From NCBI GenBank assembly GCA_016932555.1, contig JAFGCQ010000004.1, forward strand, positions 990 to 64,989: a stretch of DNA of 64,000 nt, given 5' to 3'. A program made the translations under genes and the position numbers. The stretch is from Candidatus Zambryskiibacteriota bacterium (GTDB taxonomy: Bacteria; Patescibacteriota; Minisyncoccia; Phycocordibacterales; WO2-35-19). The notes beneath the pieces were generated by a model, which did not search any database, was not told the DNA's origin, and saw nothing but the letters and a program-made list of their open reading frames with translations. This document shows positions 22,666 through 62,349 of this stretch, piece by piece (positions within the stretch are counted from its first letter, which is position 1; each line of letters begins with the position of its first letter).

Positions 22666-23202
22666 TTATTTCTTCTTAAATGGGAAGCCGAGAGTTTTGA
22701 GGAATTCTAGAGTGTCAGATTTATTTTTGAGATTAGTGACAATAGTAACGGCAAAGCCGAAAACATCCTTGAGATCTTCGTCGGAGGTTTCGGGGAAAAC
22801 AGTATGCTCTTTGACAGCTAAAGTGTAATTGCCCATTTCATCAACAGCCCCGGAGAAAATACCCCTGAAATCTTTGGTTCGCGGCAAAGCTATATTTAAA
22901 AGACGATCCAAAAAACTCCACATCCTTTCACCCCGAAGAGTTACTTGGACGCCAACAATATCTCCTTCCCTAGTTTTGAAAGAAGCAATTGATTTTTTAG
23001 CACCTTTTTTAATCGGTCTCTGGCCAGTAATTTTAGAGAGTCGATCTATGACCACTTCTAAACGGTTTTTATCTTTCGATGAACCGGTGCCGGAGCTTAT
23101 AACTACTTTTTCAATCTTTGGTGCTTGCATAATATTCTTTAACTTGAATGTATCTTTCAAGTTTTTGTATGATTCTTTTGTTCTATCTTTCATCATTTTC
23201 AT
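22666..23202 (-). CDS. rplE: 50S ribosomal protein L5
   Basis: L5 signature region IMQAPKIEKVVISSGTG. 178 aa. Confidence 0.9.
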   Translation of the reverse strand: MKMMKDRTKESYKNLKDTFKLKNIMQAPKIEKVVISSGTGSSKDKNRLEVVIDRLSKITGQRPIKKGAKKSIASFKTREGDIVGVQVTLRGERMWSFLDRLLNIALPRTKDFRGIFSGAVDEMGNYTLAVKEHTVFPETSDEDLKDVFGFAVTIVTNLKNKSDTLEFLKTLGFPFKKK

Positions 23203-23211
23203 GTCAGCTTT

Positions 23212-23433
23212 TTAATTTTTAATTCTTTTAACATTTGATACATGTATCGGTGCGGCTTGATCAACTATTTTACCTTTTTCGTTACTCTTTTTTCTGCGTT
23301 GATGAACTTTTTTAATATTTATTCCTTCAATTAAAACCATGTCTGATTTAGGAAAGGCGCGTAAAATTATACCAGATTTACCTTTATCCTTACCAGTTAA
23401 TACTTTTACTTTATCTCCTTTTTTTACATGCAT
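23212..23433 (-). CDS. rplX: 50S ribosomal protein L24
   Basis: KOW motif [21 protein letters not shown]. Confidence 0.9.
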
Positions 23434-23438
23434 ACTCT

Positions 23439-23537
23439 CGAATATTACGAATAAGATCGAATAATACGAATCCTATTTTTGCTATTAATTTGATTGTTCT
23501 TTATTTGTAGCATTCGATTAAATTTGTGGTTATTCGC
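23439..23537. repeat. 99-bp intergenic repeat element (CGAATA-iteron type), copy A. It fills the rplN/rplX spacer.
   Basis: 98 of 99 positions are identical to 33288-33386. It contains TCGAATA units spaced 9-10 bp apart at one end and two inverted ATTCG units at the other. Confidence 0.9.
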
Positions 23538-23914
23538 TAGATGACTTCTGAAGCTAATGAAATAATGGCCTGATGGCCGGCCTCAGCAATTTCTCGAGGA
23601 ATAGGACCAAAGATTCTTCCTGCTCTTGGAGTAATTTCACCCTTCTTCTTATCTACTACAACTAATGCATTTTCATCAAATCGGATATAAGAACCATCTT
23701 TTCTGCGTAGTGGTGTCTTTTGGCGAATTACCATTCCTAATAGTACTGCTTTTTTCTTTATTTCTTTGCGAGGTTCAGCTTTTTGAACTGAAAATTTAAC
23801 CAGCTCGCCAATTCTAGCATAGCGCTTTTTAGAAGAACCTAATATTTTAAAAACCCGGCCGATTTTAGCACCTGAATTATCTGCTATTTTAACTATAGAA
23901 TTTGGCTGAATCAT
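23537..23914 (-). CDS. rplN: 50S ribosomal protein L14
   Basis: MIQPNSIVKIADNSGAK ... 125 aa. Confidence 0.9.
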   Translation of the reverse strand: MIQPNSIVKIADNSGAKIGRVFKILGSSKKRYARIGELVKFSVQKAEPRKEIKKKAVLLGMVIRQKTPLRRKDGSYIRFDENALVVVDKKKGEITPRAGRIFGPIPREIAEAGHQAIISLASEVI

Positions 23915-23940
23915 AATTTATGTTTTTACGATTTTACTAT

Positions 23941-24231
23941 TTACTTAATTATTATAAAATGCTTATCTTTTGATATTGGTTTAACTTCCTTGATTTCAAC
24001 TTTATCACCTATTTTCTTAGTATTACCAATATCATGGGTTTTATATTTTTTATTTACTTTGTAATATTTTCTGTATTTTTTATGTTTAACAAATCTTATT
24101 ACTGAAACCGTGCAAGTATCTTTCATTTTGTCTGATACTACAATACCCTTCAAGATTCTCGATCTGATTCCATTTTTCTTCTCTTCTGTTTTTTCTATTT
24201 TTTTATCCATAATTCTTAATTCATTATTCAT
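23941..24231 (-). CDS. rpsQ: 30S ribosomal protein S17
   Basis: S17 OB-fold core with an N-terminal extension. Confidence 0.85.
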   Translation of the reverse strand: MNNELRIMDKKIEKTEEKKNGIRSRILKGIVVSDKMKDTCTVSVIRFVKHKKYRKYYKVNKKYKTHDIGNTKKIGDKVEIKEVKPISKDKHFIIIK

Positions 24232-24406
24232 TATTTATCTTCGTCAAAATTCTAGCAATTTCTTTTTTCAGATTTTTCTGCCTTTTAACATCCTTACTTT
24301 TACTACCAGCTATACCAAATCTTATATCACGCAAGGCTAGCTTTTTTTCATCAAGCTCTTTTTGTAAATCTTGTGTGATATTTTTTTTTGGTTTTTCTTT
24401 TTTCAT
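24224..24406 (-). CDS. rpmC: 50S ribosomal protein L29
   Basis: 60-aa L29-like protein. Confidence 0.8.
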   Translation of the reverse strand: MKKEKPKKNITQDLQKELDEKKLALRDIRFGIAGSKSKDVKRQKNLKKEIARILTKINNE

Positions 24407-24413
24407 AATCGTC

Positions 24414-24434
24414 TTTTATTCGTATTATTCGATC
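24414..24434. repeat. Partial inverted copy of the CGAATA repeat (ttattcgtattattcgatcat) in the rplP/rpmC spacer
   Basis: Reverse complement of atgatcgaataatacgaataa. It matches the iteron end of the 99-bp repeat. Confidence 0.7.
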
Positions 24435-24444
24435 ATATTCACAG

Positions 24445-24864
24445 TTATTGGCGAGTAACTATTTTAGTTTTTACTGGCATTTTACAGCCACCTTTACGCA
24501 AAGATTCTCGGGCAATAATTTCCGAAGTGCTTTCAGCTTCAAAAAGAACTTGACCCGGTAAAATTCTTACTTGGTAACCTTCAATATCTCCTTTACCTTT
24601 ACCCATTTTCACTTCCGCCGGCTTTTTAGTAAAAGGCATATCTGGGAAAATACGGACCCAAACTCGGCCAGTTTTACCAAGATTTCGGCTAATAATTTTT
24701 CTAGCAGCTTCTATTTGATTAGAAGTAACTCGACCGGCAGAAATAGCTTTAAGACCATGTGAACCGAAAGAAATTTCTATCCCGCGAGTAGCTGGGCTTA
24801 TCTTGTTTGGATTTTTGCGCATTATATGCCATTTCCGATATTTAACTTTTTTAGGGAATAACAT
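24445..24864 (-). CDS. rplP: 50S ribosomal protein L16
   Basis: 139 aa, L16 pattern. Confidence 0.9.
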   Translation of the reverse strand: MLFPKKVKYRKWHIMRKNPNKISPATRGIEISFGSHGLKAISAGRVTSNQIEAARKIISRNLGKTGRVWVRIFPDMPFTKKPAEVKMGKGKGDIEGYQVRILPGQVLFEAESTSEIIARESLRKGGCKMPVKTKIVTRQ

Positions 24865-24895
24865 GATTTTAGGTTAATTGGTCAATTAAAATAAT

Positions 24896-25558
24896 TTATC
24901 CTTGCTTAGTAAAAATCTCACCCTTATAAATCCAAACCTTGATGCCAACTTTGCCGAGAGGCAATTTTGCTTCATAAAAAGCGTAATCAATGTCTGCCCG
25001 CAAAGTTTGCAAAGGAATTTGCCCAACCTTTTTACTCTCTACTCTAGCCATATTAGATCCTCCTAAGATACCAGAAAGAGTAATTTTCACACCTTTAACA
25101 TCACGGTTAGCAAAAGCTTTATCAATAATTGTTTTCATCACCCTACGAAAAGGCATCCTTTTTTCTAATCCTTCAGCTACCATCTGGGCAGCAATCATTG
25201 CACTAGACTCGGGTGACTTAACTTCTTTAATATCAATTTTTAATTCTTCGTTTAGATTAAATTTTTTGCGTTTTATAAAAACTAATATATCGCTTCTAAG
25301 TTTCTCCAACCCTTCACCATTGCGTCCAATAATAAAGCCGGGTCTAGATGATTCAATAATTATTCTAAAAGTTTTCACGCTTCTTTCTATTTCAATAGAA
25401 TTAACAAAAGATCCTTTCAAGCGTTTATATAAATATTCGTAAATTAAAACATCGCTTTTTAAATTTTCTTTATATTTATCTTTTACATCAAACCAGCGAG
25501 ACTTCCAATCACGAATGATGCCCAATCTATGAGAATATGGATGTACGGTGTGAGTCAT
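24896..25558 (-). CDS. rpsC: 30S ribosomal protein S3
   Basis: 220 aa with KH domain and S3 C-terminal domain. Confidence 0.9.
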   Translation of the reverse strand: MTHTVHPYSHRLGIIRDWKSRWFDVKDKYKENLKSDVLIYEYLYKRLKGSFVNSIEIERSVKTFRIIIESSRPGFIIGRNGEGLEKLRSDILVFIKRKKFNLNEELKIDIKEVKSPESSAMIAAQMVAEGLEKRMPFRRVMKTIIDKAFANRDVKGVKITLSGILGGSNMARVESKKVGQIPLQTLRADIDYAFYEAKLPLGKVGIKVWIYKGEIFTKQG

Positions 25559-25565
25559 AATAATA

Positions 25566-25913
25566 TTAGCTTTTAGTTTTTAATTCATCTGATAAAACAA
25601 GCTTAATTTTTGAGGTTCTTTTTTTGATGGGATGAGCAGCTCCATGAGCTACTGGGCGGCGCCTAAAAAGAGTTTGGCCTTTATTTACAGTGATCGATTT
25701 AATTTTCAAATTATCGGTTTCAATACCAATGTTTTTAGCATTAGCTAGAGCCGAATTTAAAAGCTTTTGCAAGGGGCCAGTGGTTTTTTTGGTAATAAAA
25801 TTTAGTCGATTTCTGGCTTCCTTTACTGACTTGCCTCGAATAGCATCTGCTACTAAACGGACTTTCCGAGGAGATTGGCGATAATTATTAAGCTGTGCTG
25901 CAACTTCAACCAT
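25566..25913 (-). CDS. rplV: 50S ribosomal protein L22
   Basis: KVRLVADAIRGKSVKEA motif. 115 aa. Confidence 0.9.
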   Translation of the reverse strand: MVEVAAQLNNYRQSPRKVRLVADAIRGKSVKEARNRLNFITKKTTGPLQKLLNSALANAKNIGIETDNLKIKSITVNKGQTLFRRRPVAHGAAHPIKKRTSKIKLVLSDELKTKS

Positions 25914-25918
25914 ATTTT

Positions 25919-26266
25919 TTATTTACCGCTAGTGTTTTCTGCAGCAGTTTTAGCAGCTTTAGCTTGATTTATTTCTTCTTCTTTCTTTTTAGCTTCAAGT
26001 TCTTTTTGCATCTTACCACCATGTTTGATGAATTTGCGGGTGGGAGAAAATTCGCCCAAGCGGTGTCCGACCATATCTTCACTGACTAAAACTTCGATGT
26101 GATCTTTCCCATTATGAACTCCAAAAGTAAAACCGACCATTTCTGGAGAAATTACACAAGATCTAGACCATGTTTTAATAACCTCGGTATCTTCCGGTTT
26201 TTTCCCTTCAATTTTTTTAAGAACCCTTACATCTACGTAAGGTCCTTTTTTTAGCGATCGAGACAT
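25919..26266 (-). CDS. rpsS: 30S ribosomal protein S19, with a K/E-rich C-terminal extension
   Basis: [12 protein letters not shown] ... HNGK ... GHRLGEF. The start is chosen at the internal Met matching the conserved S19 N-terminus. Confidence 0.85.
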
Positions 26267-26343
26267 TTTTTCAATATTAAACCCGCCTGGCGGGAATAGG
26301 TTATATACTAACAAATTAGGCCTCAAAGTCAATCCTTTTCTTA

Positions 26344-28023
26344 CTACATCTTATCAGGAACTTTGATAGCAAGGAGATTGAGACCAAATTTTAGAATGTT
26401 ATGAGTAGCTCGAGTGAGAGCGATTTTATAAGGCGAAGATAGGTCTTTTTCGTTTACTATCCTTTCTTTACCGTAAAAACTGTTAAAAGCTCCTGCTAAT
26501 TCGGTGAGATAAGTCACAATGTAATGTGGCGCATACTCCTCACCCGCCCTTTTGACTACTTCTGGAAATCGATAAATATATCTCTCAAGTTCAGTAATCT
26601 CAAAATCTTCCGGCCTTTTAGTTTTGGAATTTAAGAATTTGAATATTGTTTTGAAATTTGGATTTTGAAATTTGGATTTTTCAAGCACGGAGTTGGCTCG
26701 AACCGCTGTGTATTGTAAATACGGCCCTGAATCACCTTCAAAAGAAATGGATTTGTCAAAATCAAAAATAATGTCCCCGCCAATGGCTTGTTTCAGTATT
26801 GAATATTTAATAGCGCCAATTGCCACTATTTCGGAAATTTGCTTCTTTTCTTCTGGAGAAAGCTCTCTGTCCTTTAATTTTTCTTCCACTTTCATCTTTA
26901 TTTGATTAATTAAACTTTCAGCCATAATCACTTCTCCTGTCCTCGAAGACATCTTGCCGCCAGGTAAGCGCAACATACCGTGAGAGAGATGTAGCAGCTT
27001 GCCTTTAAGCTCAGGGAAAACTTCACCAATTGCTACCTCAACAACATCAAAAAAAGAATCTTGTTCATTGGCAGTAATGGTGATTGATTTATCATATATG
27101 TATTTCTCCTTTTTGAGCTTAGCGAGCCCTATTTCTTTAGCTTCGTAAGTGGGAATACCATCTGTATTTACAAAAACTCGAGTATGGGTCTTGGGCTTGA
27201 AATTTTCGCCGCGAAAAATTACCGCTCCATTCGATTTTTCAAATATTTTTTTTACCCCGTCATCTACATTAGCAGATTCTTCGGGGGACATGTTTTTTTC
27301 TACAATTTTTTTGCCCACTTGCCCAGCCTCACTTTCATAAAAATGAAAATCAAATTTACTACCTAACTGCTCATAAATTTTTTCAAAAGAATTCAGAGAG
27401 AACTTTTTACCCTCTTCATATAATTTATTTATTTTCGGATCAGATTTTTCGTAAATTTTTTTATTTATTTCTTTTATTTCCTCTTTATGATTCTCGTAAT
27501 TTATGCCGCCATAAACATAAGCTCCGCTCCAATCCAGCTCTGGTTTTTGAATTTTGCCCCAAATAGTCTTGGCCACATGAAGTCCCATGTCGCCGTGATA
27601 ACTTACTGGTATAGTTTTTGCTCCACTGACCTCTAAAATGCGTGTTATTGATTCACCAATAGCATTGTTCATTAAATGGCCGATATGAAATTCTTTGAAC
27701 GGATTAGGTGCTGTGTGGTCAATTAAAATTTTTCCTTTGCCCGATGTAGCTTTAGCGAATTTAGGTCCTTCTTTATTTATTTCGTTAACAGAGTCAGTAA
27801 AAAATTCTTTAGACAAATAAAAATTTATAAAGCCACCGACCCATTTCACTTTCTCTATTTCCGGAATTTTATGGTAAGAGAGCGGTTTACCGATTTCCTC
27901 AGCTTTATCTCCTGCAAAAAATGAAAAATCGCCATTTTGTAAATCCTTGGGATGCATTAGGATGATCTCTTCCATTTTAAGTTCTTTTTTAATCCAATCC
28001 TTTATCTTTTTTTGAATTTCCAT
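26344..28023 (-). CDS. argS: Arginine--tRNA ligase
   Basis: Class I HIGH motif (FHIGH), anticodon-binding DALR-like C-terminus. 559 aa. Confidence 0.85.
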
Positions 28024-28145
28024 ACTTTTATATTACCAATTTTTGATTCTAAAATCTTGTCTCATTATAGTTGACTAATTGTTATTAATATGGAGAATAC
28101 TATACGGAATAGATATTTGAAATAGGATATTTGAAAGGAGAAAAA

Positions 28146-29099
28146 ATGACAATAATCAAATATAAACCTTATCAAGAAAGATTGCTGGATTGGCAATATC
28201 AAAATTTGCTTAGATTTATTCGATGTTCATCTGAAACTTATCTTGCTAAAAATCCATATCAGGATAGAGGTCGTTGGACAAATTTAGAAACACCAAGAAT
28301 GGTTTTTAAATTTGAAAACGGTTTTCCTATAATTACTGAAAGAAAAATTTCTTTCTGGAAAACTGCCATTACAGAAATTATTCTTTTTTTAAACGGCGCC
28401 CGCAAATTTGAGGATATGTTAAAAGCCGGGTGCGGTTGGTGGGCTGAATGGACCTCATTGGAAAAATGTAAAGATTTGGGTCTTCAAGTTGGAGATTTGG
28501 GTCCGGGATCATATGGTCCAATTCTTCATAATTTACCAAATTTCGTATGGGATCAGCAACCATATGGTTGTTCAAGTTATAAAAATCAACCTTTCAATCA
28601 AATAGAACATCTGATTCAATCTCTCAAAGATGGGCCTGGACTTAATACCCATGTGATATCTACTTGGTATCCGCCGTTTGATATGCAACACAGCAAATTA
28701 CAGCGCCAAGTTTCGGTAGCGCCCTGCCATGGCACCAAAATGCAATTTACAGTAATCAATGGCAAAAAGCTTGTCTATACCATGACTCAGCGCTCTGGTG
28801 ATGTGCCGGTTGGTGTTGTCTCAAATATCATTCAGCATGCAGCACTTTGTATTATGGTAGCTCATGTCTGTAGATACGAGCCTTACAAATACATTCATGT
28901 CGTTGATGACGCTCAGATATACGAAAATCAAATAGAAAAAGTTGATGAGCTTTTAGACAGAATACCCTTTCGTTTACCCACTCTTCAACTCACCAAAGAG
29001 GGCCAAGAAATCAAAAATATTTTTGATTTCAAGGCCGATCACTTTGAACTTTCTGATTATGAATGTCATCCAGCTATGAAAATTCCAACTACACTTTAG
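28146..29099 (+). CDS. thyA: Thymidylate synthase (ThyA family)
   Basis: Active-site PCHG and the conserved Asn in SNIIQHAAL (dUMP-type). The start is set at the second ATG, which is preceded by AAAGGAG. Confidence 0.75.
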   Translation: MTIIKYKPYQERLLDWQYQNLLRFIRCSSETYLAKNPYQDRGRWTNLETPRMVFKFENGFPIITERKISFWKTAITEIILFLNGARKFEDMLKAGCGWWAEWTSLEKCKDLGLQVGDLGPGSYGPILHNLPNFVWDQQPYGCSSYKNQPFNQIEHLIQSLKDGPGLNTHVISTWYPPFDMQHSKLQRQVSVAPCHGTKMQFTVINGKKLVYTMTQRSGDVPVGVVSNIIQHAALCIMVAHVCRYEPYKYIHVVDDAQIYENQIEKVDELLDRIPFRLPTLQLTKEGQEIKNIFDFKADHFELSDYECHPAMKIPTTL

Positions 29100-29110
29100 A
29101 AAGGAAAGAT

Positions 29111-29692
29111 ATGTTATTGGGAAAAACTATCTCAATTATCTTTACCGCTCCCGTTTATGCTAAAAATAATCGTCTGATTATTGGCAATGGTAAATTTATT
29201 CCTTGGTTAGGTAAAGTTTCTTCAGATTTAAAGAGATTTAAAAAACTTACCTTAAATCAAACTGTGATTATGGGACGCAAAACCTGGGACTCTTTGGAAC
29301 ACAAACCTTTGCCAGATAGACAAAACATAATTCTTAGCAGAAACCCAGATATAATCTTCGAACCAAGCGATATTCCACTCAAAGATTGGACTTTTCTAGA
29401 AATAGGAGTGACCAAATCTTTTGAAAGTGCTATTTTAATGGCAAAATCTCAAACAGTATGGATAATAGGCGGTGCTGAAATTTACAAATTAGCTTTGCCT
29501 TATGTTGATTATATTCACAGAACTCTTATTTCTGGAAGATTTGATGGAGACATCTTCTTTCCAGAATATAACCTAAATGAATGGAGAAAAGATAAAGAAA
29601 AATCTATCTTTTTAAAAGCCAAAGAATTAGAAAATACGATGGATGAATATGATTCTTTTTATGAAGTTTTTGAAAGAAAGGAGGTGATATGA
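29111..29692 (+). CDS. folA: Dihydrofolate reductase
   Basis: IGNGKFIPW ... VIMGRKTWDSL ... WIIGGAEIY. The start is set at the ATG preceded by GAAAGGAAAG. Confidence 0.8.
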   Translation: MLLGKTISIIFTAPVYAKNNRLIIGNGKFIPWLGKVSSDLKRFKKLTLNQTVIMGRKTWDSLEHKPLPDRQNIILSRNPDIIFEPSDIPLKDWTFLEIGVTKSFESAILMAKSQTVWIIGGAEIYKLALPYVDYIHRTLISGRFDGDIFFPEYNLNEWRKDKEKSIFLKAKELENTMDEYDSFYEVFERKEVI

Positions 29693-30174
29693 CAGAAAAA
29701 AAAATAATGGAAATGATTCATGCCAGAGTCGATGCCCAGCGTAAAAAAATGGAAGAATGCATTCGTCTTGGTATATGTCCACTTTGTTGGGAAAATTTAG
29801 CAAAATGGCATAATGCTCCAATATTAAGATATGGAGATTTTTGGGCCATTACAGCTAATGATCATCCTTATGAAGGTACGAAAATTCATCTCTTGGCGAT
29901 TTATAAGCATCATATAAATTCAATTGACCAAGTAGAAGTAGCTGCAGAGAATGAACTTTTCAGACTTTTTTCTCTGTTCTGTAAAAAAAATAAAATTGTT
30001 GGTGCTTCGATATTAATGCGTACAGGTGAAATGAACTACACTGGAGCAACTTTGGCACATCTTCATGCCCATTTTATTTCTGGGGTTTCTAGAGAAGAAG
30101 TAGAGAAATTTTCAGAAATCAAATATCCAAATTCATTTATCATATCGGTTCTTGGTTACAAGATTCCGAAATGA
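29689..30174 (+). CDS. HIT-family (histidine triad) hydrolase
   Basis: HLHAHFI histidine-triad motif near the C-terminus. 161 aa. Confidence 0.7.
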   Translation: MTEKKIMEMIHARVDAQRKKMEECIRLGICPLCWENLAKWHNAPILRYGDFWAITANDHPYEGTKIHLLAIYKHHINSIDQVEVAAENELFRLFSLFCKKNKIVGASILMRTGEMNYTGATLAHLHAHFISGVSREEVEKFSEIKYPNSFIISVLGYKIPK

Positions 30175-30180
30175 AAATTA

Positions 30181-30211
30181 CCCCGCACTTTTTATAAAAG
30201 TGCGGGGCTTT
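30181..30211. terminator. Strong bidirectional Rho-independent terminator (CCCCGCACTTTT-loop-AAAAGTGCGGGG)
   Basis: 11-12-bp GC-rich stem between the convergent HIT and deaminase genes, followed by a T run. Confidence 0.7.
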
Positions 30212-31060
30212 TTATTTTTTCACTTTTAATATTTTGACTTCAGCAGCTTTTAAAGTCTCGAAGCCTTTAAGCACACTGTAGCCCTGATTAAAGATTAATC
30301 TTTTGATTTGGCATTTAGCTAACATACGAGCACAATCAGCACAAGGAAAATCTGTGACGTAAACTGTTGCACCCTTAAGAGAAATACCCTCGCGAGCACA
30401 GGTTGCAATGATTCCTTTTTCGGCGTGAAGTGATAGATAAATTTCAGATCCAGCTATATCGCCTGCATCAAAATTTATCCGCGGATCACTAAAAATTGCG
30501 GTTTCGTATTCGTTTGGATAATGCTTATTGTAGGCACAGGCAATCATCTTCCCGTCACGAAAAGCCAGAGCTCCAATTTGTCGCCACCAATCTGGTGATT
30601 TTTTACCGAGGTTAAAAGCTGCTATCATACGAAGAGTGTCGATTTCTTCGTAAGTTATCTCCATATCCGGCATAATTGGTTCTTGCCTTTTGACTGCAGT
30701 CATATCCCACCTAGCCCAGATCGGCTCAAATTTCACCTCACAATCACAATTTTTGAGATATTTCTCGGCAAAAACATGAGAAATATCCTCATCCGGCATT
30801 AAACAATCCTCTTCTATAGATATAGAATCTTCCAGAAAAAAAATTTTGACGGAGTTTTTTATAGACGGATTTCTTTTAAGACCGGAAATTATAGTGTAGA
30901 CATCAACTGCAGGCAAAGCGCAGATATTCCTTTTTAATCTGGGAATAAGAGCTTCTGCCAAATCTTGAGATATAAGATGCAAGTGAAAGGGCTCGTGGTC
31001 CTTAAGCCAAAGAAGATATTGCCGATTTATAACCGGCATATAGGCAATGAGATTATTCAT
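30212..31060 (-). CDS. dCMP/cytidine deaminase-domain protein with an unrecognised N-terminal domain of about 135 aa
   Basis: C-terminal HAEKG ... PCADC zinc-binding deaminase motifs. The N-terminal half matches nothing I recognise. Confidence 0.65.
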   Translation of the reverse strand: MNNLIAYMPVINRQYLLWLKDHEPFHLHLISQDLAEALIPRLKRNICALPAVDVYTIISGLKRNPSIKNSVKIFFLEDSISIEEDCLMPDEDISHVFAEKYLKNCDCEVKFEPIWARWDMTAVKRQEPIMPDMEITYEEIDTLRMIAAFNLGKKSPDWWRQIGALAFRDGKMIACAYNKHYPNEYETAIFSDPRINFDAGDIAGSEIYLSLHAEKGIIATCAREGISLKGATVYVTDFPCADCARMLAKCQIKRLIFNQGYSVLKGFETLKAAEVKILKVKK

Positions 31061-32726: not shown

Positions 32727-32736
32727 AATTGTTAAT

Positions 32737-33282: not shown

Positions 33283-33287
33283 ATGAT

Positions 33288-55194: not shown

Positions 55195-55803
55195 CTATTC
55201 CAGTATTCCATCCAAGTTTACATCATACAAAATCTGTTCGGCAATTAAACGATAATTTACAAGCTCATTTTCCTTAAACCAAAGTTTTATCTCTTTATTT
55301 GCCTCCTCAGTCGAACCAGAAGCGTGTATCAAGTTGCGAACTGCCCGACCATCAGTGTCAGACACTATATATGAATCCAAAACAAAGTCTCCACGAATAG
55401 TGCCCACATCTGAAGTTCGGGGTTCTGTTCCACCAGTTACTTTACGCACCACTTCCACCGCGTGCGCCCCTTGCCAAACTAGCGCTACCACCGGACCTGA
55501 AGTCATATATTTAATTAAAGTTTCCAAAACTCTGTTTCCAGCTTCTATTGGGTTTTTTAAAGGGGGCTCTATGCCCTTTTTTTGATAGCTAGCGATAGCT
55601 TTTTCACCAGCTTTTTTTTGCCATTCCGGATCAACCGTGTAGTGTTTTCTTACAAAACTTGCATCAGGAACAACCATTTTTATCGCAATCATTTTTAAAC
55701 CCATCTTTTCATACCTTTTAATAATTTCGCCAATAAGGGATCTTTGTACACCATCGGGCTTTATAATTACTAGCGTTCTCTCTTTACTTGGATGATTATT
55801 CAT
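55195..55803 (-). CDS. ndk: Nucleoside-diphosphate kinase (long form, 202 aa)
   Basis: LVIIKPDGVQR, NLIHASGS (active-site His). Insertions relative to the canonical 140-aa enzyme. Confidence 0.75.
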   Translation of the reverse strand: MNNHPSKERTLVIIKPDGVQRSLIGEIIKRYEKMGLKMIAIKMVVPDASFVRKHYTVDPEWQKKAGEKAIASYQKKGIEPPLKNPIEAGNRVLETLIKYMTSGPVVALVWQGAHAVEVVRKVTGGTEPRTSDVGTIRGDFVLDSYIVSDTDGRAVRNLIHASGSTEEANKEIKLWFKENELVNYRLIAEQILYDVNLDGILE

Positions 55804-55838
55804 GATTCTAATGACTCTAAAATTTTTAATTTTTAAAA

Positions 55839-56633
55839 CTATCTTGTCAAAACTTCTATTCCATTCTTTGTAACCGCTACTGTATGCTCAAAATGAGCAG
55901 AAAGAGATTTATCACGAGTAATAAAGGTATAGCCATCAGAGAGACGCTTGATTTCACGACTACCTAAAGAAAACATCGGCTCAATAGCAATAACTAGCCC
56001 TTCTCTAAGTTCCGGCCCTTCGCCCCTCTCGGCTCGATTGGGTACATACGGTTCTTCATGGACACTATAACCTACCCCGTGACCTGACAAGCCTTCTATT
56101 ATGCCCAAATTGTATTTCATAGCCACTTGCATAATAGCCGCCCCAATATCACCTATATGGCCACCGATTTGCATAGTGTTAATGCCTTTTTCTAAAGCTT
56201 CATAAGTCGCTCTAATGAGAGTCGCGGCATCATCGCTAATTTTACCAACTGGTACAGTAATGGCTGCGTCAGTAATCATGGGTCTTACTTGTGGTGAACC
56301 AGTCAAACTATAAGTAAAACCCATATCCAAAGAAACGATATCTCCTTCAAATAAAATCCGATTGCCGTCATGATTTGGAATACCGTGAACAATTTCTTCA
56401 TTTATGGAAACACAAAGCGAGGCCGGGTAGGGTTTTGAAGCATCATCAGATTGATAGCCAAAAAAAGAGCCGACGCCACCCGCTTCATCGATAAGTTTTT
56501 CGGCGTAATCATTAAGCTCTTGAGTTTTAACCCCTGCTTTAACTTTTTGGGCCACTTTTTTTAAAATCTTCGCGTGAATCTTACCTCCTTCCCGCATCAC
56601 TGCTATTTCTTCTTCTGTTTTGTATTTGATCAT
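55839..56633 (-). CDS. map: Type I methionine aminopeptidase
   Basis: Pita-bread-fold metal ligand pattern. 264 aa. Confidence 0.85.
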   Translation of the reverse strand: MIKYKTEEEIAVMREGGKIHAKILKKVAQKVKAGVKTQELNDYAEKLIDEAGGVGSFFGYQSDDASKPYPASLCVSINEEIVHGIPNHDGNRILFEGDIVSLDMGFTYSLTGSPQVRPMITDAAITVPVGKISDDAATLIRATYEALEKGINTMQIGGHIGDIGAAIMQVAMKYNLGIIEGLSGHGVGYSVHEEPYVPNRAERGEGPELREGLVIAIEPMFSLGSREIKRLSDGYTFITRDKSLSAHFEHTVAVTKNGIEVLTR

Positions 56634-57220
56634 AATCCAATTTTGCTTATTATCTCTTTATGAACTTCATCGATTGTTTGTTCGCCGTTTATTTCTATAA
56701 ATTTATAATAGTGATTGTTTTTGAGATATTCCACAGTTGGTAAAACTTTTTCTTTAAACCAATCTAGCCTGTTTTTTATATCTTCTTCATTGTCATCAGT
56801 CCTGCCTCTATCTTTCATTAGCTTGGTAACCCATTCATTTGAAGCATTTATCGAAATAACCATTGGGTTCTCTCTTTCATAAAATTTTAAAGCATCACTC
56901 AGTATATACGCTTCACCAAGTTTACGAGGTGTACCATCAAAGAAAATAGTCACATCTGGAGAAAGCTCTTCAACCAAGCGCTTAGTCCAAATGTAGATAG
57001 GCATAAACTCAGGAACTAATTCACCCTGATCTAAAATTTTTTTGACTCTTTGGGATGTGAAAGATTGGGTTTGGGTAAGTTTTCTAAATCCTTCCCCAGT
57101 TTCTATATAGATAATTTTTTGCTCAGGATATTTTTTCTTAATTTCTTCCTGTAGGAGCTTAGCTTGGGTACCCTTACCGCAACCAGATGGCCCTAAAAAT
57201 ATGAAAGTTTGCGGTTGCAT
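56630..57220 (-). CDS. adk: Adenylate kinase
   Basis: P-loop GPSGCGKGTQ. The start is chosen at the ATG matching the conserved N-terminus (MQPQTFIFLGPSG). Confidence 0.8.
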   Translation of the reverse strand: MQPQTFIFLGPSGCGKGTQAKLLQEEIKKKYPEQKIIYIETGEGFRKLTQTQSFTSQRVKKILDQGELVPEFMPIYIWTKRLVEELSPDVTIFFDGTPRKLGEAYILSDALKFYERENPMVISINASNEWVTKLMKDRGRTDDNEEDIKNRLDWFKEKVLPTVEYLKNNHYYKFIEINGEQTIDEVHKEIISKIGL

Positions 57221-57264
57221 GAAATAAGTATAACATAAATCCCCCACTCGGGACTAGTCCTCGA

Positions 57265-57285
57265 CCTCCCCTTGATCAGGGGAGG
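57265..57285. repeat. GC-rich hairpin element hp1 (CCTCCCC-TTGATCA-GGGGAGG)
   Basis: Same stem/loop family as 57680-57702, 58407-58429 and about 32262-32287. Preceded by a GGACTAGTCC palindrome. Confidence 0.7.
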
Positions 57286-57305
57286 CAATGCGCGATAATT
57301 AGGAA

Positions 57306-57656
57306 ATGACAAGAGTTCATAATATCCGCAAACTTTCAGATCGCAGGAAAGAATTACGAAAAAACCAAACAAAAACCGAAGAAAAACTCTGGTGGTATTT
57401 GAAAGATAAGAGGCTGGGAATTAAATTCAGAAGACAGCACAGTATAGGAGGATATATTTTAGATTTTATATGCAAAGAAAAGAAATTGATTATAGAAATT
57501 GATGGTAGAGTACATTTGAAAAAAGATAATAAAGAATACGATAAAGTTAGAGACAAATATTTTGAAGAGTTAAATTATAAAGTTCTGAGATTTACGAATG
57601 ATGAGGTTGAAAATGGGGTTAAAGAGATTATTGATGTTATAAAGCGGTATCTTTAA
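57306..57656 (+). CDS. DUF559-domain endonuclease-like protein (Vsr/PD-(D/E)XK-related)
   Basis: LWWYLKDKRL ... RRQHSIGGYILDFIC ... IIEIDGRVH ... D..R...L...GYKVLRF pattern typical of DUF559. Confidence 0.65.
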   Translation: MTRVHNIRKLSDRRKELRKNQTKTEEKLWWYLKDKRLGIKFRRQHSIGGYILDFICKEKKLIIEIDGRVHLKKDNKEYDKVRDKYFEELNYKVLRFTNDEVENGVKEIIDVIKRYL

Positions 57657-57657
57657 C

Positions 57658-57702
57658 CCCCACCCCTCAATTCGTGTAGCCCTTCTCTTGATCAGGGGAG
57701 GG
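57658..57702. repeat. Left terminal inverted repeat (26 bp, CCCCACCCCTCAATTCGTGTAGCCCT) plus hairpin hp2 (CCCTTCTC-TTGATCA-GGGGAGGG)
   Basis: 25 of 26 positions match the reverse complement of 58426-58451. It begins 1 nt after the DUF559 stop codon. Confidence 0.8.
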
Positions 57703-57721
57703 AAAACCAAAATCATACAAA

Positions 57722-57748
57722 AAGAAAACCGCCATTCAGCGGTTTTCG
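57722..57748. terminator. Bidirectional terminator (AACCGC-CATTCA-GCGGTT with flanking A/T runs)
   Basis: Lies between the convergent DUF559 gene and ORF 57771-58322. Confidence 0.6.
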
Positions 57749-57770
57749 GTTGAAAATCATTGAAGAGCGA

Positions 57771-58322
57771 TTATATCAAAATCCTCCCATTATACTCATG
57801 GAACCCGATTTCTCCACTGGTAGCCGTGAAAAAAATATGCTCCATTCCAGCAAAATTTTCGAATCCGCCCCCGAGAAAAATAGTGTTTTCATACTTAAGA
57901 AGGTTTTTATCATAGTTTCCTACACGAGTATCATTATAAAAACCGTGTGTAGCTAAACCTCGTCCACCATGGAATTCACGTTGTTTGTAGGCGTAATTAA
58001 GCGCCATTTTCAAAAAACTGATCACTTCCTTAGGATAACATCCAGAATAAGACATCCACCACACGGCCATCCATCTTCCTCTGGGTCTGAACCTATAAAA
58101 GATAGTGGTTGTACCGGCGGAAAAATCTGAAAGCGGTGTCACACAATAGTGATCTACCACTTTGTAGTTACCGGATACAAAAGTGATTCTTTTGTATCCG
58201 CTAGATTCTATGACTTTAACAGAATTCTTTTTGTTTCCAGCATATCCGTCAAGCATAGCATCGAAGAATACTTTTTCTGCTTTTTGAATGATTTTCTTTC
58301 TCTGTTTGGACTCTAGTTCCAC
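57771..58322 (-). CDS. Hypothetical protein carried on a TIR-bounded cassette. GC-richer than the host genes.
   Basis: 183-aa ORF at about 42 percent GC against a background of about 33 percent. No recognisable motif. Confidence 0.45.
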   Translation of the reverse strand: MELESKQRKKIIQKAEKVFFDAMLDGYAGNKKNSVKVIESSGYKRITFVSGNYKVVDHYCVTPLSDFSAGTTTIFYRFRPRGRWMAVWWMSYSGCYPKEVISFLKMALNYAYKQREFHGGRGLATHGFYNDTRVGNYDKNLLKYENTIFLGGGFENFAGMEHIFFTATSGEIGFHEYNGRILI

Positions 58323-58406
58323 TGTTGGCTCCTTTCACCCATTAGGTCTGACTCAGGTTATACAACAATATAAAAATTAAAGCAAGAATAAAAAATACCG
58401 CGCGTT

Positions 58407-58451
58407 CCCTCCCCCGTCCAGGGGGAGGGCTACACGAAGTGAGGGGTGGGG
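58407..58451. repeat. Hairpin hp3 (CCCTCCCCC-GTCCA-GGGGGAGGG) plus right terminal inverted repeat (26 bp)
   Basis: The reverse complement of 58426-58451 is CCCCACCCCTCACTTCGTGTAGCCCT. It ends 1 nt before the secY stop codon. On the minus strand the hairpin plus a T run also serves as the secY terminator. Confidence 0.8.
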
Positions 58452-58452
58452 A

Positions 58453-59724
58453 TTAATATTCTCTTGCAGAGATTTGAGCATCAACTTTTTTAACGAGATC
58501 AAGAACCACTGAAACTACGATAAGAAGTCCTGTACCGCCTATAGCCACTGCGCTGATACCAGTAGCCGCCCTTACTATTAAAGGCAAAACAGCAATTAAT
58601 CCCAAGAAAATAGCGCCAATCATGGTTAAACGGGAAAGGATTTTGGCTATATATGAGGAAGTCGAGGAACCGGGTCGAACTCCCGGAATAAAAGCACCGC
58701 CTCTCTGTAAATTTTTGGAAAGATTCTCCGGATCAAAAGTAATAGCTGTGTAGAAATAAGTAAAAACAAAAACTAATAAGAAGTAGGCAATGCCATAAAA
58801 AATCTGGTTAGAAAGCAAAGCAAGTAGAAATTCAGAAATCTTTTGGATTATAGTATTGTCTACATTAGCTAAAAAGCGGATTATCATTTGAGGAAAAAGT
58901 AATATGGAAAGAGCAAAAATTATAGGAATCACCCCAGCTTGATTAACTCTTAAAGGTAAATAAGTGGAAACTCCACCATACATTTTATTACCTCTAACTT
59001 GTTTAGCGTAAGTTATCGGTATGGGTCTTTCTGCTTCAGTAATAACTACTACACCCCAAATCACTGCTATGGCAGCCGCCAGAAAGCCAATATACATCGG
59101 CAATTGAGATGGATCAAAAGCAAATAAAAGCTGGCTAGTCGCACTGGGTAAAATAGCAACAATGCCGGCAAAAATGATAAGCGAGACTCCGTTACCAATA
59201 CCAAATTCAGATACTAACTCACCAAGCCACATAAGAAGCATTGAACCGGCAGCAATTACTATAAGATTTGTTAGCAATTCAAAACCAGCAAGTTTACTTA
59301 AAACATTCTGATTTTGAAGAAGAATAATAAAAGCATAACCTTGCATTAAAGCTAGAGGCACAGTCAAAAATCTTGAATATTGAGAAAATTTTCTGCGTCC
59401 TAATTCACCCTCTTCTTGATACATAGCCTTGAGTTTAGGAAACATAACAGTCATAAGCTGCATAATAATAGAAGCGGTAATATATGGCGACACACCGAGC
59501 ATAATAATTGAAAGATTAGACAAACCACCACCCGAAAAGATATTTAAAAGTCCAAAGAAATCATTATCAGACATAAACTGCTCTAATTTAAAAGTATCAA
59601 TACCGGGAATTGGGATAGAGGCCATCAAACGGAAGAGAGCCAACATTACAAGGGTAAAAATTATTCTCTTTCTTAAATTTTTATCCCCTAAGACTAATTT
59701 TATTTTGTGAATAAAATTTTGCAT
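58453..59724 (-). CDS. secY: Preprotein translocase subunit SecY
   Basis: 10-TM SecY pattern. 423 aa. Confidence 0.9.
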   Translation of the reverse strand: MQNFIHKIKLVLGDKNLRKRIIFTLVMLALFRLMASIPIPGIDTFKLEQFMSDNDFFGLLNIFSGGGLSNLSIIMLGVSPYITASIIMQLMTVMFPKLKAMYQEEGELGRRKFSQYSRFLTVPLALMQGYAFIILLQNQNVLSKLAGFELLTNLIVIAAGSMLLMWLGELVSEFGIGNGVSLIIFAGIVAILPSATSQLLFAFDPSQLPMYIGFLAAAIAVIWGVVVITEAERPIPITYAKQVRGNKMYGGVSTYLPLRVNQAGVIPIIFALSILLFPQMIIRFLANVDNTIIQKISEFLLALLSNQIFYGIAYFLLVFVFTYFYTAITFDPENLSKNLQRGGAFIPGVRPGSSTSSYIAKILSRLTMIGAIFLGLIAVLPLIVRAATGISAVAIGGTGLLIVVSVVLDLVKKVDAQISAREY

Positions 59725-59729
59725 TCAAT

Positions 59730-60149
59730 TTATTTGCTTAAATTTTTGACCTTTTTTGAAGTTTCAATATTTTCAAAAATAAAGTTTTTCTTTATTTCTT
59801 TATCAGCTAAAATTTTTGCTTTCGGAATTCGGCCGTTCTTTTTATTTATAATACCTTTTTCTAACAAAACTTGATGATTTATCTTATCTCCTGCAGAAAA
59901 ATTTTTATCTAAAATGGAAAGCTTTATTGGCATAGCTTTTTCAAGTCGAGACTTAAGAAAATTTTTACCTCGACCTCTTAATTTTGGTAATTTTTTAATT
60001 ATATCACGCATTTCTGGTCTTTTTTTCCTGCCGGCCCTGGCATTTTGGCCTTTGGTGCCGCGACCAGAAGTCTTGCCGCGTTTACCCCCCCGACCAATTT
60101 TTTTGGCTTTCCGATTAGTTCTATTTTTTTTTAAATTATGGAATTGCAT
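59730..60149 (-). CDS. rplO: 50S ribosomal protein L15
   Basis: GRGGKRGKTSGRGTKGQ glycine/arginine-rich N-terminus. Confidence 0.85.
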   Translation of the reverse strand: MQFHNLKKNRTNRKAKKIGRGGKRGKTSGRGTKGQNARAGRKKRPEMRDIIKKLPKLRGRGKNFLKSRLEKAMPIKLSILDKNFSAGDKINHQVLLEKGIINKKNGRIPKAKILADKEIKKNFIFENIETSKKVKNLSK

Positions 60150-60177
60150 TGCACGAATATTACTAATAAGATTAAGT

Positions 60178-60789
60178 CTAAGAATTAATTTTTACTTTTT
60201 CTTTATTTTTCTCTTTCAGTTGTAAAAGAGCTTTTACCGCAGCTCTGGCAATATTAAGCTTGTTTTTTGATCTGGAAAGAATTTTTGAAGAAACTTCTTT
60301 TATCCCAGCCAGTTCGAGAACTACTCTCACTGCACTGCCAGCAATCACTCCTTTCCCAGGAGCAGGATTAAGAAATATTTCAGCACTAGCGTATTTGGTA
60401 TTTACCGGATGAGCAATAGAGCCTTTGTCAGTTAAAGATACTTTAATTATATGTTTTTTTGCGTCTCGGATAGCTTTTTCTATGGCAATAGGAGTATCAC
60501 CAGCTTTACCAATACCCACACCCACTCTGCCTTTTCTATCGCCAATTACTACCACAATACTAAAACTGAACCTGCGACCACCGGCAACTACTCTGGTTAC
60601 TCTTCTAATGTCTATTATTTTATTATCAAACTCTTGTTTAACCCTTGCCGGACGTCGAGAAGGTCGGCGTTCATTTTTTTGTCGAAATTTAGTTTTATTT
60701 TCATTTTTAAAATTGTTGTTTATTTTAGTTTTTTTATCAGTTTTTTCAACTTCTTTTCTATCTTCTTTTTTTATTTCTTTTTCTTCCAT
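60178..60789 (-). CDS. rpsE: 30S ribosomal protein S5, with a K/E-rich N-terminal extension. No rpmD (L30) between S5 and L15.
   Basis: RVVAGGRRFSF ... GIGKAGDTPIAIEKA S5 core. Confidence 0.9.
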   Translation of the reverse strand: MEEKEIKKEDRKEVEKTDKKTKINNNFKNENKTKFRQKNERRPSRRPARVKQEFDNKIIDIRRVTRVVAGGRRFSFSIVVVIGDRKGRVGVGIGKAGDTPIAIEKAIRDAKKHIIKVSLTDKGSIAHPVNTKYASAEIFLNPAPGKGVIAGSAVRVVLELAGIKEVSSKILSRSKNKLNIARAAVKALLQLKEKNKEKVKINS

Positions 60790-60800
60790 AATAATTTTAA

Positions 60801-61148
60801 TTAAAACTCTAAACCAGCCTTCCTGGCACCCTGGGCTAAAGCAGCAATTCTACCAGTATAAAGATAGCCCTCTCTATCAAATACTACTTTAGTGATTTTT
60901 TTGGTTTTAGCTTGTTTAGCGATTTCTGCCCCAACTTCACCTGCTTTATCTAAAACCGATTTACTTTTAATGTTTTTGCTAGAAGCAAAAGCTAAACTTA
61001 CACCTTTTTCATCATCAATAAGTTGAGCAGAAATATATTTATTCGATCTAAAAACAGAGAGTCTGGGTCTTTCTGCTACACCAAAAATTTTAGCTTTTAT
61101 ACGCTTTTTTCTCCTGTTTCTTTTTTCTGTTTTTAATTTAGTATTCAT
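60801..61148 (-). CDS. rplR: 50S ribosomal protein L18
   Basis: [19 protein letters not shown] pattern. Confidence 0.9.
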
Positions 61149-61153
61149 AACTT

Positions 61154-61705
61154 TTAAACTGTTTTCTTACCTTGTTTTCTTCTTATAATTTCATTCTCAT
61201 AACGAAAACCCTTGCCTTTATAAGGTTCCGGTTTTTTTAAGCTTCTTACTTTGGCAGTAAAAGCTCCGACTAACTCTTTATCAAAACCAAATATAGTAAT
61301 GAGATTCTTTTCAGCTTTTACTTCCAAGCCGTCAGGGATTAGAACTTCTACCGGATGGGAAAAACCCAGAGAAAGAATCAACTTATTGCCTGCCTGCGCA
61401 GGCAGGCCATTAACTTGGGATTTAAAACCTACGCCTTCTAATACTAATTTTTTTTCAAAACCATCATTAACTCCTTTTATCATGTTTTTTATATGAGAGG
61501 CATAAGTACCCCATAGAGCCTTAGTTTGATTATTTTCTTTGGGTATAGAAAGATTGATATGATTTTCTTCAATTTTAATTACTACATCATCACGAAATTT
61601 TCTTTCCAATAAACCTTTTGGACCTTTCACAAAAAAAACGTTATCTTTTAAGGAGACTTCTGTACCTGGTAGTATCTTTATTTCTTTTTTACCTATTCTT
61701 GACAT
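61154..61705 (-). CDS. rplF: 50S ribosomal protein L6
   Basis: Two L6 repeats, LSLGFSHPV. Contains an inserted LPAQAG palindrome. Confidence 0.9.
61389..61406. repeat. GC-rich perfect palindrome CCTGCCTGCGCAGGCAGG, copy 3. In-frame inside rplF, encodes LPAQAG.
   Basis: Identical to 1432-1449. The coding strand shares the 20-mer GGCCTGCCTGCGCAGGCAGG with the metzincin gene. Confidence 0.85.
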
Positions 61706-61731
61706 AATTATTTATAGTGAGCGTAGTCGAA

Positions 61732-62124
61732 CTACCAAATATTAAACAAATGTTCTCCTCCTAAATTTTCTTTTTTAGCATCAACATCGGTTCTAATACC
61801 TTCAGGAGTCGAAAAAATCGACATGCCAAAACCTTTCTTAAAAATTTTTATGTCCTTAGCTTTAGTATATAAGCGTCTTGATGGCTTAGAAATTCTTTTA
61901 ACTTCAGAGATTACCGGTTTTCCATCCTCTTGATATAATAATTCTACCTCCAGAGATTTTGTGCTGCCGCGACTTTTTTGACTTACATTACCAAGATAAT
62001 TTTTAACAGACAAAAGTTCAGCAATAGCAAGCTTTAAATTGGAAAAAGGCACGGAAACTTTTTCCTTTTTCATAATACTTGCATTCTTCACTCTTATTAT
62101 AAAATCTCCTATTGGATCGTTCAT
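61732..62124 (-). CDS. rpsH: 30S ribosomal protein S8
   Basis: MNDPIGDFIIRVKNA N-terminus. Confidence 0.9.
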   Translation of the reverse strand: MNDPIGDFIIRVKNASIMKKEKVSVPFSNLKLAIAELLSVKNYLGNVSQKSRGSTKSLEVELLYQEDGKPVISEVKRISKPSRRLYTKAKDIKIFKKGFGMSIFSTPEGIRTDVDAKKENLGGEHLFNIW

Positions 62125-62163
62125 ATATTTTCTAGGCAGTATCCTGAGCGTTAGCTGAAGGAC

Positions 62164-62349
62164 TTACCAAGAAGCTTTTTTAACTCCTGGAATTCTTCCT
62201 TCGTTAGCAAGTTCTCGAAAACAAATCCGACACAAATCAAAATCTCTCATATAACCTCTACTGCGACCACATTTAAAACAGCGTCTTACAGCTCTGGTTT
62301 TAAATTTAGGCTTTTTTTGAGCCCTTGCTATAACTGAAGTTTTTGCCAT
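62164..62349 (-). CDS. rpsN: 30S ribosomal protein S14 (type Z, zinc-ribbon)
   Basis: [20 protein letters not shown] CxxC...CxxC motif. 61 aa. Confidence 0.9.

Follow-up and report, generated by a model that had tools for sequence, protein, structure and literature searches.

An old, lineage-specific split of the S10-spc ribosomal-protein gene cluster into three blocks, with rplS behind rplB, in a clade of Candidatus Zambryskibacteria

The S10-spc cluster of ribosomal-protein (r-protein) genes is the usual example of a gene order that resists rearrangement. Disconnection of its parts usually begins with a few genes entering the spacer between two operons, which is followed by full separation; among the rearrangements recorded for Gammaproteobacteria and Bacilli, 65% broke only the links between operons and left the operons intact, and the spc and alpha operons were never separated (Brandis, 2021; PMC8046335). 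R-protein clusters split into segments have also been described in Asgard and DPANN archaea (PMC10833476). Here, the cluster was analyzed in a stretch of 64,000 nucleotides (the window) of contig JAFGCQ010000004.1 (GenBank assembly GCA_016932555.1) from a Candidatus Zambryskiibacteriota bacterium, where it is divided into three blocks and rplS follows rplB. Our literature search on r-protein gene order in the candidate phyla radiation (CPR)/Patescibacteria found no paper describing this arrangement. PMC9132574 was rejected as a precedent, as it concerns a Pseudomonadales gene near rpsF-rpsR.

Gene identities in the window were assigned by Pfam scans of all substantial open reading frames (ORFs), and tRNAs by ARAGORN. 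The three blocks and their key genes, all identified by Pfam, were:

55839-62349, minus strand: block C, rpsN-rpsH-rplF-rplR-rpsE-rplO-secY-(ORF flanked by terminal inverted repeats, TIR)-adk-map
62164-62349, minus strand: S14 (rpsN)
58453-59724, minus strand: SecY
55839-56633, minus strand: Map
40273-45131, minus strand: block A, tuf-rpsJ-rplC-rplD-rplW-rplB-rplS
43929-45131, minus strand: tuf, the first gene of block A
40825-43914, minus strand: rpsJ-rplC-rplD-rplW-rplB
40825-41673, minus strand: L2 (rplB)
40273-40752, minus strand: L19 (rplS), 72 nt after rplB
22666-26266, minus strand: block B, rpsS-rplV-rpsC-rplP-rpmC-rpsQ-rplN-rplX-rplE
25919-26266, minus strand: S19 (rpsS)
22666-23202, minus strand: L5 (rplE)

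All cluster genes were on the minus strand. The end of L2 (40825) and the start of S19 (26266) were 14.5 kb apart, with L19 and 14 kb of other genes between them, and rplB was not adjacent to rpsS. S14 started 39.7 kb from the end of L5 and upstream of tuf, and rplE adjoined acyP instead of rpsN. The S14 unit was about 10.7 kb upstream of tuf, and the chromosome order of the blocks was C-A-B. Inside blocks A, B and C, the gene order was canonical except for the absent L30. L30 aside, each gene expected from S10 to SecY-Adk-Map was present once, and no duplicated cluster gene was found in the window. The Pfam match of L15 in block C was weak, but its position supports the identity, and the true start of S19 is the ATG at 26266, not the TTG of the longest ORF. 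An earlier sequence-only reading of the window had listed tuf-rpsJ-rplC-rplD-rplW-rplB-rplS on the minus strand, a 14-kb block of named genes between rplS and rpsS, rpsS to rplE after argS with acyP, PEBP, comF and a pilus locus behind them, and rpsN to secY-adk-map about 39 kb away on the same strand. All of these orders were borne out, and tRNA-Leu, SIMPL and VTT, which that reading had missed, were added to the 14-kb block. The window L19 protein was 100% identical to a protein of an NCBI metagenome-assembled genome labelled Candidatus Zambryskibacteria. Loss of L30 is reportedly a known CPR trait; thus, the absence of L30 from the S5-L15 interval of the window fits a CPR bacterium.

Loci of relatives are referred to by L numbers. 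The S3 query against GTDB species representatives gave 80 loci, which were annotated by tblastn with the window proteins, and the S8 query against metagenomes gave relatives at 63-74% S8 identity. Overall, at least 10 related species-level assemblies shared the three blocks, the rplB-rplS-tRNA-Leu junction, the place of argS ahead of rpsS, and comF/pilus genes behind rplE. Six further assemblies (GCA_001823665, GCA_048499675, SZUA-15, CAYTTP010000001 and two further metagenome contigs) carried tuf-S10-(small ORF)-L3-L4-L23-L2-L19 followed by non-ribosomal genes. L2 and L19 were adjacent in L001-L004, L085-L087, L128 and L129. In each of the six relatives scanned, L19 was followed by tRNA-Leu(GAG), and in five by tRNA-His(GTG) as well (not found in L085). 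In SZUA-15 and CAYTTP010000001, L19 and S19 were on one contig and one strand, 14.6 and 16.3 kb apart, respectively, with VTT, SecE-NusG-L11 and nucleotide genes in between. L085, L086 and L005-L012 were syntenic with the window over the part of the intervening block at 26344-38920, whose core was variable.

In the eight closest loci (S3 identity 78-83%), L2 was absent upstream of S19 and S14 was absent downstream of L5 within the sequence available. ArgRS was upstream of S19, adjacent or within 2.7 kb, in five of these eight loci (L005, L007, L008, L010 and L012), and L5 was followed by ComF (minus strand) and PilM in six (L005-L008, L010 and L011). The interval from L5 to ComF in close relatives contained 0-3.2 kb of other DNA; no matches to AcyP or PEBP were found in these relatives, and both are specific to this genome. 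Eight relatives (among L089-L111 and L126) possessed S14...SecY-Adk-Map-NDK-u146-betaCASP-RNaseY(-) in the order of the window, where u146 is a 146-amino-acid ORF, and in ten loci L5 was absent within 6.1-9.8 kb upstream of S14. In L128, ClpP-Tig-NusA on the opposite strand was linked to tuf; thus, the whole C-A-B layout appears conserved. All 80 related genome loci had block B as one contiguous unit; an insertion at L16/L29 was present in two of them.

Moreover, a Logan contig of SRR13394437, the window's own read set, was 100% identical to the window over L23-L2-L19-tRNA-Leu, and a second one spanned L24-L5-AcyP-PEBP-ComF; these contigs weigh less as evidence than the recurrence in other genomes. 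GC content and GC skew were uniform over the block junctions. Exact look-ups of the window S19 and S14 proteins in independent assemblies returned no records. The three-way split with rplS recruited behind rplB is genuine. Given that the three-block layout is common to relatives at only 63-83% protein identity, the split is an old, lineage-specific order in a clade of Candidatus Zambryskibacteria (Parcubacteria/Paceibacteria, CPR).

The outgroup consisted of more distant Paceibacteria (S3 identity 55-71%), whose labels included Taylorbacteria, Vogelbacteria and Giovannonibacteria. The cluster was still in one piece in most outgroup genomes, with the following gaps at its junctions:

L2/S19: median 1281 bp; longer than 400 bp in 35 of 45, longer than 1 kb in 28; largest 8.5 kb
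L5/S14: median 628 bp; longer than 400 bp in 24 of 45, longer than 1 kb in 13; largest 6.7 kb
S10/L3: median 141 bp; longer than 400 bp in 11 of 38, longer than 1 kb in 3; largest 3.2 kb
Other junctions: median 141 bp or less; few or none longer than 400 bp or 1 kb

Blocks B and C have 13 internal junctions (SecY/Adk and Adk/Map excluded), of which 12 never exceeded 500 bp; the remaining one, L16/L29, did so in 2 of 71 loci. Full breaks at L2/S19 or L5/S14 were also found in other, more distant loci: seven had no L2 within 5.8-9.3 kb upstream of S19, and in six L5 was followed by at least 6.6 kb without S14. The junctions with small insertions in the outgroup, L2/S19 and L5/S14, were those fully separated in the Zambryskibacteria clade.

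In an all-against-all BLASTP, 146 of the 181 gap ORFs were singletons. By Pfam, the gap cargo included histidine kinases (8 ORFs), ABC/MacB efflux components, extracytoplasmic function (ECF) sigma factors with DUF5667, two reverse transcriptases of diversity-generating retroelements (DGRs) and surface proteins, among others. The 25 commonest Pfam families of this cargo included no integrase or transposase, and the Pfam summary did not support homing endonucleases or transposases as typical cargo; one rve integrase was found near L19 in L003. At S10/L3, small ORFs were inserted in L002 (6949-7398), L003 (6579-7094, including a HicA toxin), L085 (6956-7234), L086 (6919-7320) and L129 (6763-7074).

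The starts of the three units in the window were marked by promoter-like elements, and hairpins were found in the rpsN and rpsS leaders as well as after rpsJ and rplS:

62395-62423, minus strand: promoter-like TTGATT-N17-TAGTTT with a TTTG extended -10, upstream of rpsN
62360-62390, minus strand: GC-rich leader hairpin of rpsN (-18.1 kcal/mol, z = -4.3), then an A/U-rich stretch
45244-45271, minus strand: promoter-like TTGACT-N16-TAATAT upstream of tuf
43463-43480, minus strand: GC hairpin CCCCCGCC..GGCGGGGG right after rpsJ
40252-40269, minus strand: palindromic terminator-like hairpin GATCACCCCGAGGGGTGATTTTAAATTT after rplS
26305-26332, minus strand: promoter-like TTGACT-N16-TAGTAT with a TTTG extended -10, upstream of rpsS and kept in relatives
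26282-26294, minus strand: leader hairpin CCCGCCAGGCGGG, then TTTAATATT, just ahead of the rpsS ATG at 26266

A homologous TTGACT...TTTGTTAGCTT element was kept upstream of S14 in relatives. The consensus upstream of S19 and S14 was TTGAC(T/A), about 17 nt ending in TTTG, and TA(G)NNT. In the leaders, a GC-rich hairpin starting 2-7 nt after the -10 was followed by a U-rich stretch and the start codon, with no obvious Shine-Dalgarno sequence. The position of the hairpin was shared between species and the stem sequences differed; median energies were -7.7 and -8.8 kcal/mol for S19 and S14 leaders, respectively. A simple regular expression covering the -35 and -10 elements gave the following counts of the motif within 150 nt upstream of each gene:

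S19: 64 of 79 loci
S14: 55 of 76 loci
Tuf: 14 of 32 loci
SecE: 5 of 5 loci
L3: 9 of 46 loci
L4: 11 of 50 loci
L11: 2 of 6 loci
Every other cluster gene: 0-5% of loci

The motif was absent ahead of L19 in all seven loci counted and before the window rplS. As a control, long L2/S19 gaps carried the motif in their last 150 nt in 27 of 34 cases, compared with an interior rate of 0.044 per 150 nt; for L5/S14 gaps, the corresponding values were 12 of 23 and 0.055. Thus, the motif was enriched directly ahead of S19 and S14. A scan of the window found motif plus hairpin ahead of S14, Tuf, SecE and S19, but ahead of no r-protein gene inside a block. Rfam searches for known r-protein leaders were negative for the window at the gathering threshold and for 22000-64000 at E <= 0.1, and the sole extra Rfam match was a chance RsmY below threshold.

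The hairpins after rpsJ and rplS had been described as terminator-like by the sequence-only reading. Both hairpins are present, and termination at them is a prediction. The one after rplS has a 7-bp stem followed by TTTTAAATTT, and the one after rpsJ has a strong GC stem of 7-8 bp with a weak tail, CTTGCAATTT, for which a terminator scan made no call. In the 127-nt S10/L3 spacer (43362-43488), the hairpin was followed by a promoter-like TTGCAA...TTTGTTAATTT ahead of rplC.

Given the promoter-plus-hairpin marks at both junctions, the breaks would follow pre-existing borders of transcription units. We consider it probable that the old Zambryskibacteria split occurred at promoter-marked, insertion-prone borders of such units by insertion followed by disconnection. 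The ancestral cluster would have consisted of three units, tuf-S10-L3-L4-L23-L2, S19 to L5 and S14 to Map, each with its own promoter-like element, and possibly a further border at S10/L3. Each unit would open with a sigma-70-type extended -10 element; a GC hairpin close to the predicted 5' end would come next, and then A/U-rich sequence. The hairpin could be a 5'-terminal stabilizer against RNase J/RNase Y, an insulator that ends read-through or an attenuator. As co-transcription across L2/S19 and L5/S14 would be unneeded, both junctions would tolerate insertions and collect unrelated cargo, including kinases, transporters, ECF sigma factors and DGRs. Once loosened, these junctions would have been fully disconnected in the Zambryskibacteria clade, L19, tRNA-Leu and tRNA-His recruited behind L2, and a block of 14-16 kb (secE-nusG-rplK, folate/nucleotide genes and argS) would have come to separate L19 from S19, with all three units keeping the same strand. 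We lean slightly toward a wider version, in which the cluster was re-partitioned throughout the Paceibacteria into three or four autonomous modules, each with a promoter and a 5' hairpin. The borders L2/S19, L5/S14 and, less so, S10/L3 would then be integration hot spots where DGRs, ECF sigma factors, sensor kinases, efflux systems and other unrelated accessory genes were repeatedly gained and lost, and the Zambryskibacteria split would be the end state.

Several points weigh against this explanation. The order of events, promoter first and insertion later, is deduced from outgroup loci with short gaps, which are possibly secondary. The z-scores of the hairpins against shuffles were modest, with medians of -1.8 for S19 leaders and -2.5 for S14 leaders. 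About 20-30% of loci lacked the motif ahead of S19 or S14, and a different conserved leader was present in some of these. The activity of the promoters, the 5' position of the hairpins and termination are predicted from consensus sequences. In addition, the relatives were picked by sequence similarity and not from a tree, such that both the depth of the split and the count of independent breaks are approximate.

Alternatively, the operons might have eroded neutrally in a small, drift-prone genome of symbiont type, at sites unrelated to transcription, such as recombination hot spots or sites of tRNA-linked integration, and the promoter-like motifs would have appeared later. This would agree with the tRNAs flanking the new borders (tRNA-Leu and tRNA-His after L19, tRNA-Ser upstream of S14 in relatives), with the loss of other classical links (L11 without L1/L10/L12, map without the alpha operon) and with the occasional insertions at S10/L3, L3/L4 and L16/L29. 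However, the motif was also present in outgroup loci where L5 and S14 were only about 60-230 nt apart, with no cargo, and likewise where L2 and S19 were nearly adjacent (L029, L043 and L079). Moreover, L2/S19 and L5/S14 were hit recurrently in separate lineages, whereas all but one of the junctions counted inside blocks B and C stayed short. Neutral erosion is therefore regarded as unlikely.

Much less likely is a recent rearrangement by recombination between the DGR, the 99-bp repeats and the TIR cassette, which the sequence-only reading had placed at the break points. A reverse transcriptase indeed lies directly upstream of rpsN, and the region contains a pair of 100-nt repeats (99% identical) together with 52-nt TIRs. 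However, the repeats, at L14/L24 and secE/nusG, and the TIR cassette, at secY/adk, are not at any break point. The synteny comparison found relatives with an identical arrangement, close relatives have no reverse transcriptase upstream of S14, and transposases and integrases were absent from the commonest cargo families of the outgroup gaps. The same reading had also raised misassembly, that is, chimeric joins at rplB/rplS, argS/rpsS, rplE/acyP and RT/rpsN (RT, reverse transcriptase). The source is a metagenome-assembled contig, and a look-up for an independent assembly of the RT/rpsN junction gave no record. Nevertheless, the L2-L19-tRNA-Leu, ArgRS-S19 and L5-ComF-PilM junctions recur in independent assemblies of other species and samples, as does an S14 block without upstream L5; the Logan contigs cover two of the window's own junctions, and GC content and skew do not change across the block junctions. 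An artefact of assembly or binning is effectively refuted for three junctions and, taken as a whole, is hardly credible. The probable explanation thus remains disconnection at promoter-marked borders.

The other features of the window were:

62420-63475, minus strand: reverse transcriptase (RVT_1, probably DGR-type; Pfam E = 1e-24), immediately upstream of rpsN
Downstream of Map, minus strand: NDK, u146 and a beta-CASP nuclease (Pfam)
Between block C and block A, plus strand: RNase Y, ClpP, trigger factor, two unknown ORFs and NusA (Pfam)
Just ahead of block A, minus strand: three small ORFs, one of them pilin-like
40122-40205, minus strand: tRNA-Leu(GAG) (ARAGORN)
39842-40081, minus strand: 79-amino-acid stand-alone ORF weakly similar to EF-Tu domain 2 (Pfam E = 5.6e-5)
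Between the 79-amino-acid ORF and tRNA-His, minus strand: PduO-type adenosyltransferase (Pfam)
39025-39098, minus strand: tRNA-His(GTG) (ARAGORN)
26344-38920, mixed strands: rest of the 14-kb intervening block (Pfam)
21038-22586, mixed strands: acyP and PEBP (minus) and comF (plus), after rplE (Pfam)
After ComF: type IV pilus genes PilM/N/B/T (Pfam)

The first part of 26344-38920 contained two ORFs of unknown function (90 and 145 amino acids), a two-component system (histidine kinase and response regulator), VTT (plus strand), FolD and SIMPL. SecE-NusG-L11, a 111-amino-acid ORF, an NMNAT-like gene and a dCMP deaminase followed in the middle, and HIT, DHFR and ThyA on the plus strand and then ArgRS at the end. 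rplK (32307-32726) was without downstream rplA-rplJ-rplL-rpoBC. Similarly, map was followed (55195-55839) by ndk, and then by u146 and the beta-CASP nuclease, instead of infA-rpmJ and the alpha operon, and no alpha-operon genes were among the other window ORFs tested by Pfam. The order map-ndk-u146 was kept across the wider clade.

The L19 protein carried an acidic C-terminal extension of about 45 residues past the Pfam L19 domain (40273-40410); the extension differed in length among relatives, whose L19 proteins ranged from 132 to 200 amino acid residues. The 79-amino-acid ORF was rejected as a tuf pseudogene left by rearrangement: it had no significant similarity to the window's own Tuf and was intact. 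It was preceded by a TGgTATAAT-like extended -10 element, and no homologue was found in relatives. No Shine-Dalgarno sequence of the GGAGG type was visible upstream of the highly expressed genes rpsS, rpsN, rplX, nusG, rplC, rplS and rplB, and the 15-20 nt before the ATG were A/U-rich.

A tRNA-Ser(GCT) gene on the opposite strand was directly upstream of the promoter-like element of S14 in the close relatives L092 (9572-9663) and L110 (9220-9309), and it could also be seen upstream in L100, L105 and L108; the window has the reverse transcriptase at this place. Outgroup genomes showed further unusual joins. S19 came directly after SecE-NusG-L11 in L053 (265-1700), Adk-Map came directly after L5 in L029 (5936-7300), where the S14-SecY segment was absent, and Adk-Map-NDK-betaCASP was upstream of S19 in L073 (2454-9150). 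Some outgroup loci (L058-L060, L062-L064, L074-L077 and L082) possessed an alternative, strongly conserved S14 leader about 40-110 nt upstream, consisting of GATTGGAAGCAC, a variable hairpin, AGCTAACCAATC and a U-rich tail. Its appearance is that of a closed stem with an internal loop, and it could represent an r-protein leader RNA; the leader of L063 had no Rfam match.

The reverse transcriptase of the window was 42-51% identical to those of L015, L023 and L072 (48% to that of L015). In L015 (13800-15900), the DGR reverse transcriptase was in the L5/S14 gap with a 125-bp pair of template and variable repeats (TR/VR) of 91% identity; in L023 (6000-8900), it was in the L2/S19 gap, and in L072 (about 14500), downstream of L5 with no S14 nearby. 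Aside from the reverse transcriptase, only a probable accessory ORF was seen next to S14 of the window, where the sequence-only reading had placed a DGR. No TR/VR pair came up when 62300-64000 was compared with the whole window in an adenine-tolerant search; the target may lie past the window end, and a DGR may be present. Given that reverse transcriptases occur in the gaps of relatives but none was found upstream of rpsN in close relatives, DGRs are one kind of cargo and not an evident cause of the break.

The 100-nt repeats (23434-23533 and 33283-33382, minus strand) were identical at 99 of 100 positions. They filled the L14/L24 and secE/nusG spacers up to the start codons of rplX and nusG, both of which encode KOW-domain proteins. 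Each repeat held four ATTCG(T/A)A-like repeats, and similar ATTCGTA-rich spacers were found upstream of S19 in L014, L015, L023 and L067. A structured RNA was not supported (fold z-score -0.47). The TIR cassette (57653-58456) consisted of G/C-rich 52-nt inverted repeats, 85% complementary, around a 183-amino-acid DUF5680-like ORF, whose homologues in L105 and L111 were after the beta-CASP gene on the opposite strand.

To our knowledge, almost no promoter data exist for these organisms, and the promoter-plus-hairpin leaders are concrete predicted transcription starts for uncultured bacteria. Moreover, 16 syntenic r-proteins are used for CPR phylogeny and for contig quality checks; given that they are in three loci here, criteria that expect all 16 on a single contig can under-recover or misflag genomes.

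Similar to the S10-spc-alpha cluster of E. coli and B. subtilis, the blocks of this genome retained gene content and internal gene order. Different from that cluster, they are three in number and in the order C-A-B, rplS is behind rplB, whereas in model bacteria it is part of the trmD operon, there is no adjacent alpha operon, and no Rfam leader was detected. Horizontal-transfer hot spots flanked by core genes are a concept of comparative genomics. Similar to such hot spots, two fixed core-gene intervals carry variable, mostly unrelated cargo across species; in contrast, the flanks here are r-protein genes, and integrases and transposases are lacking among the 25 commonest cargo families.

Similar to the Asgard and DPANN archaea, a conserved cluster is present as several segments at separate genomic positions in particular lineages. 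Those archaea, however, belong to another domain, their cuts are at other places, such as uS14/uS8 and uL6/L32e in a Heimdallarchaeote, and no link to internal promoters or hot spots was reported for them (PMC10833476). The cluster of this study also resembles the described bacterial cases in its proposed two-step route, in events that are mostly traceable to gene insertions and in units that would have stayed intact and kept their orientation (Brandis, 2021; PMC8046335). Different from those cases, the breaks are inside the E. coli S10 operon (L2/S19) and spc operon (L5/S14), recurrently at these two sites in this clade, the spc-alpha link is absent, and transposons are not evident at the junctions. 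The data suggest why these two sites were chosen, as internal promoters would remove the need for co-transcription. Thus, the insertion-then-disconnection model would extend to CPR bacteria and to sites inside classical operons.

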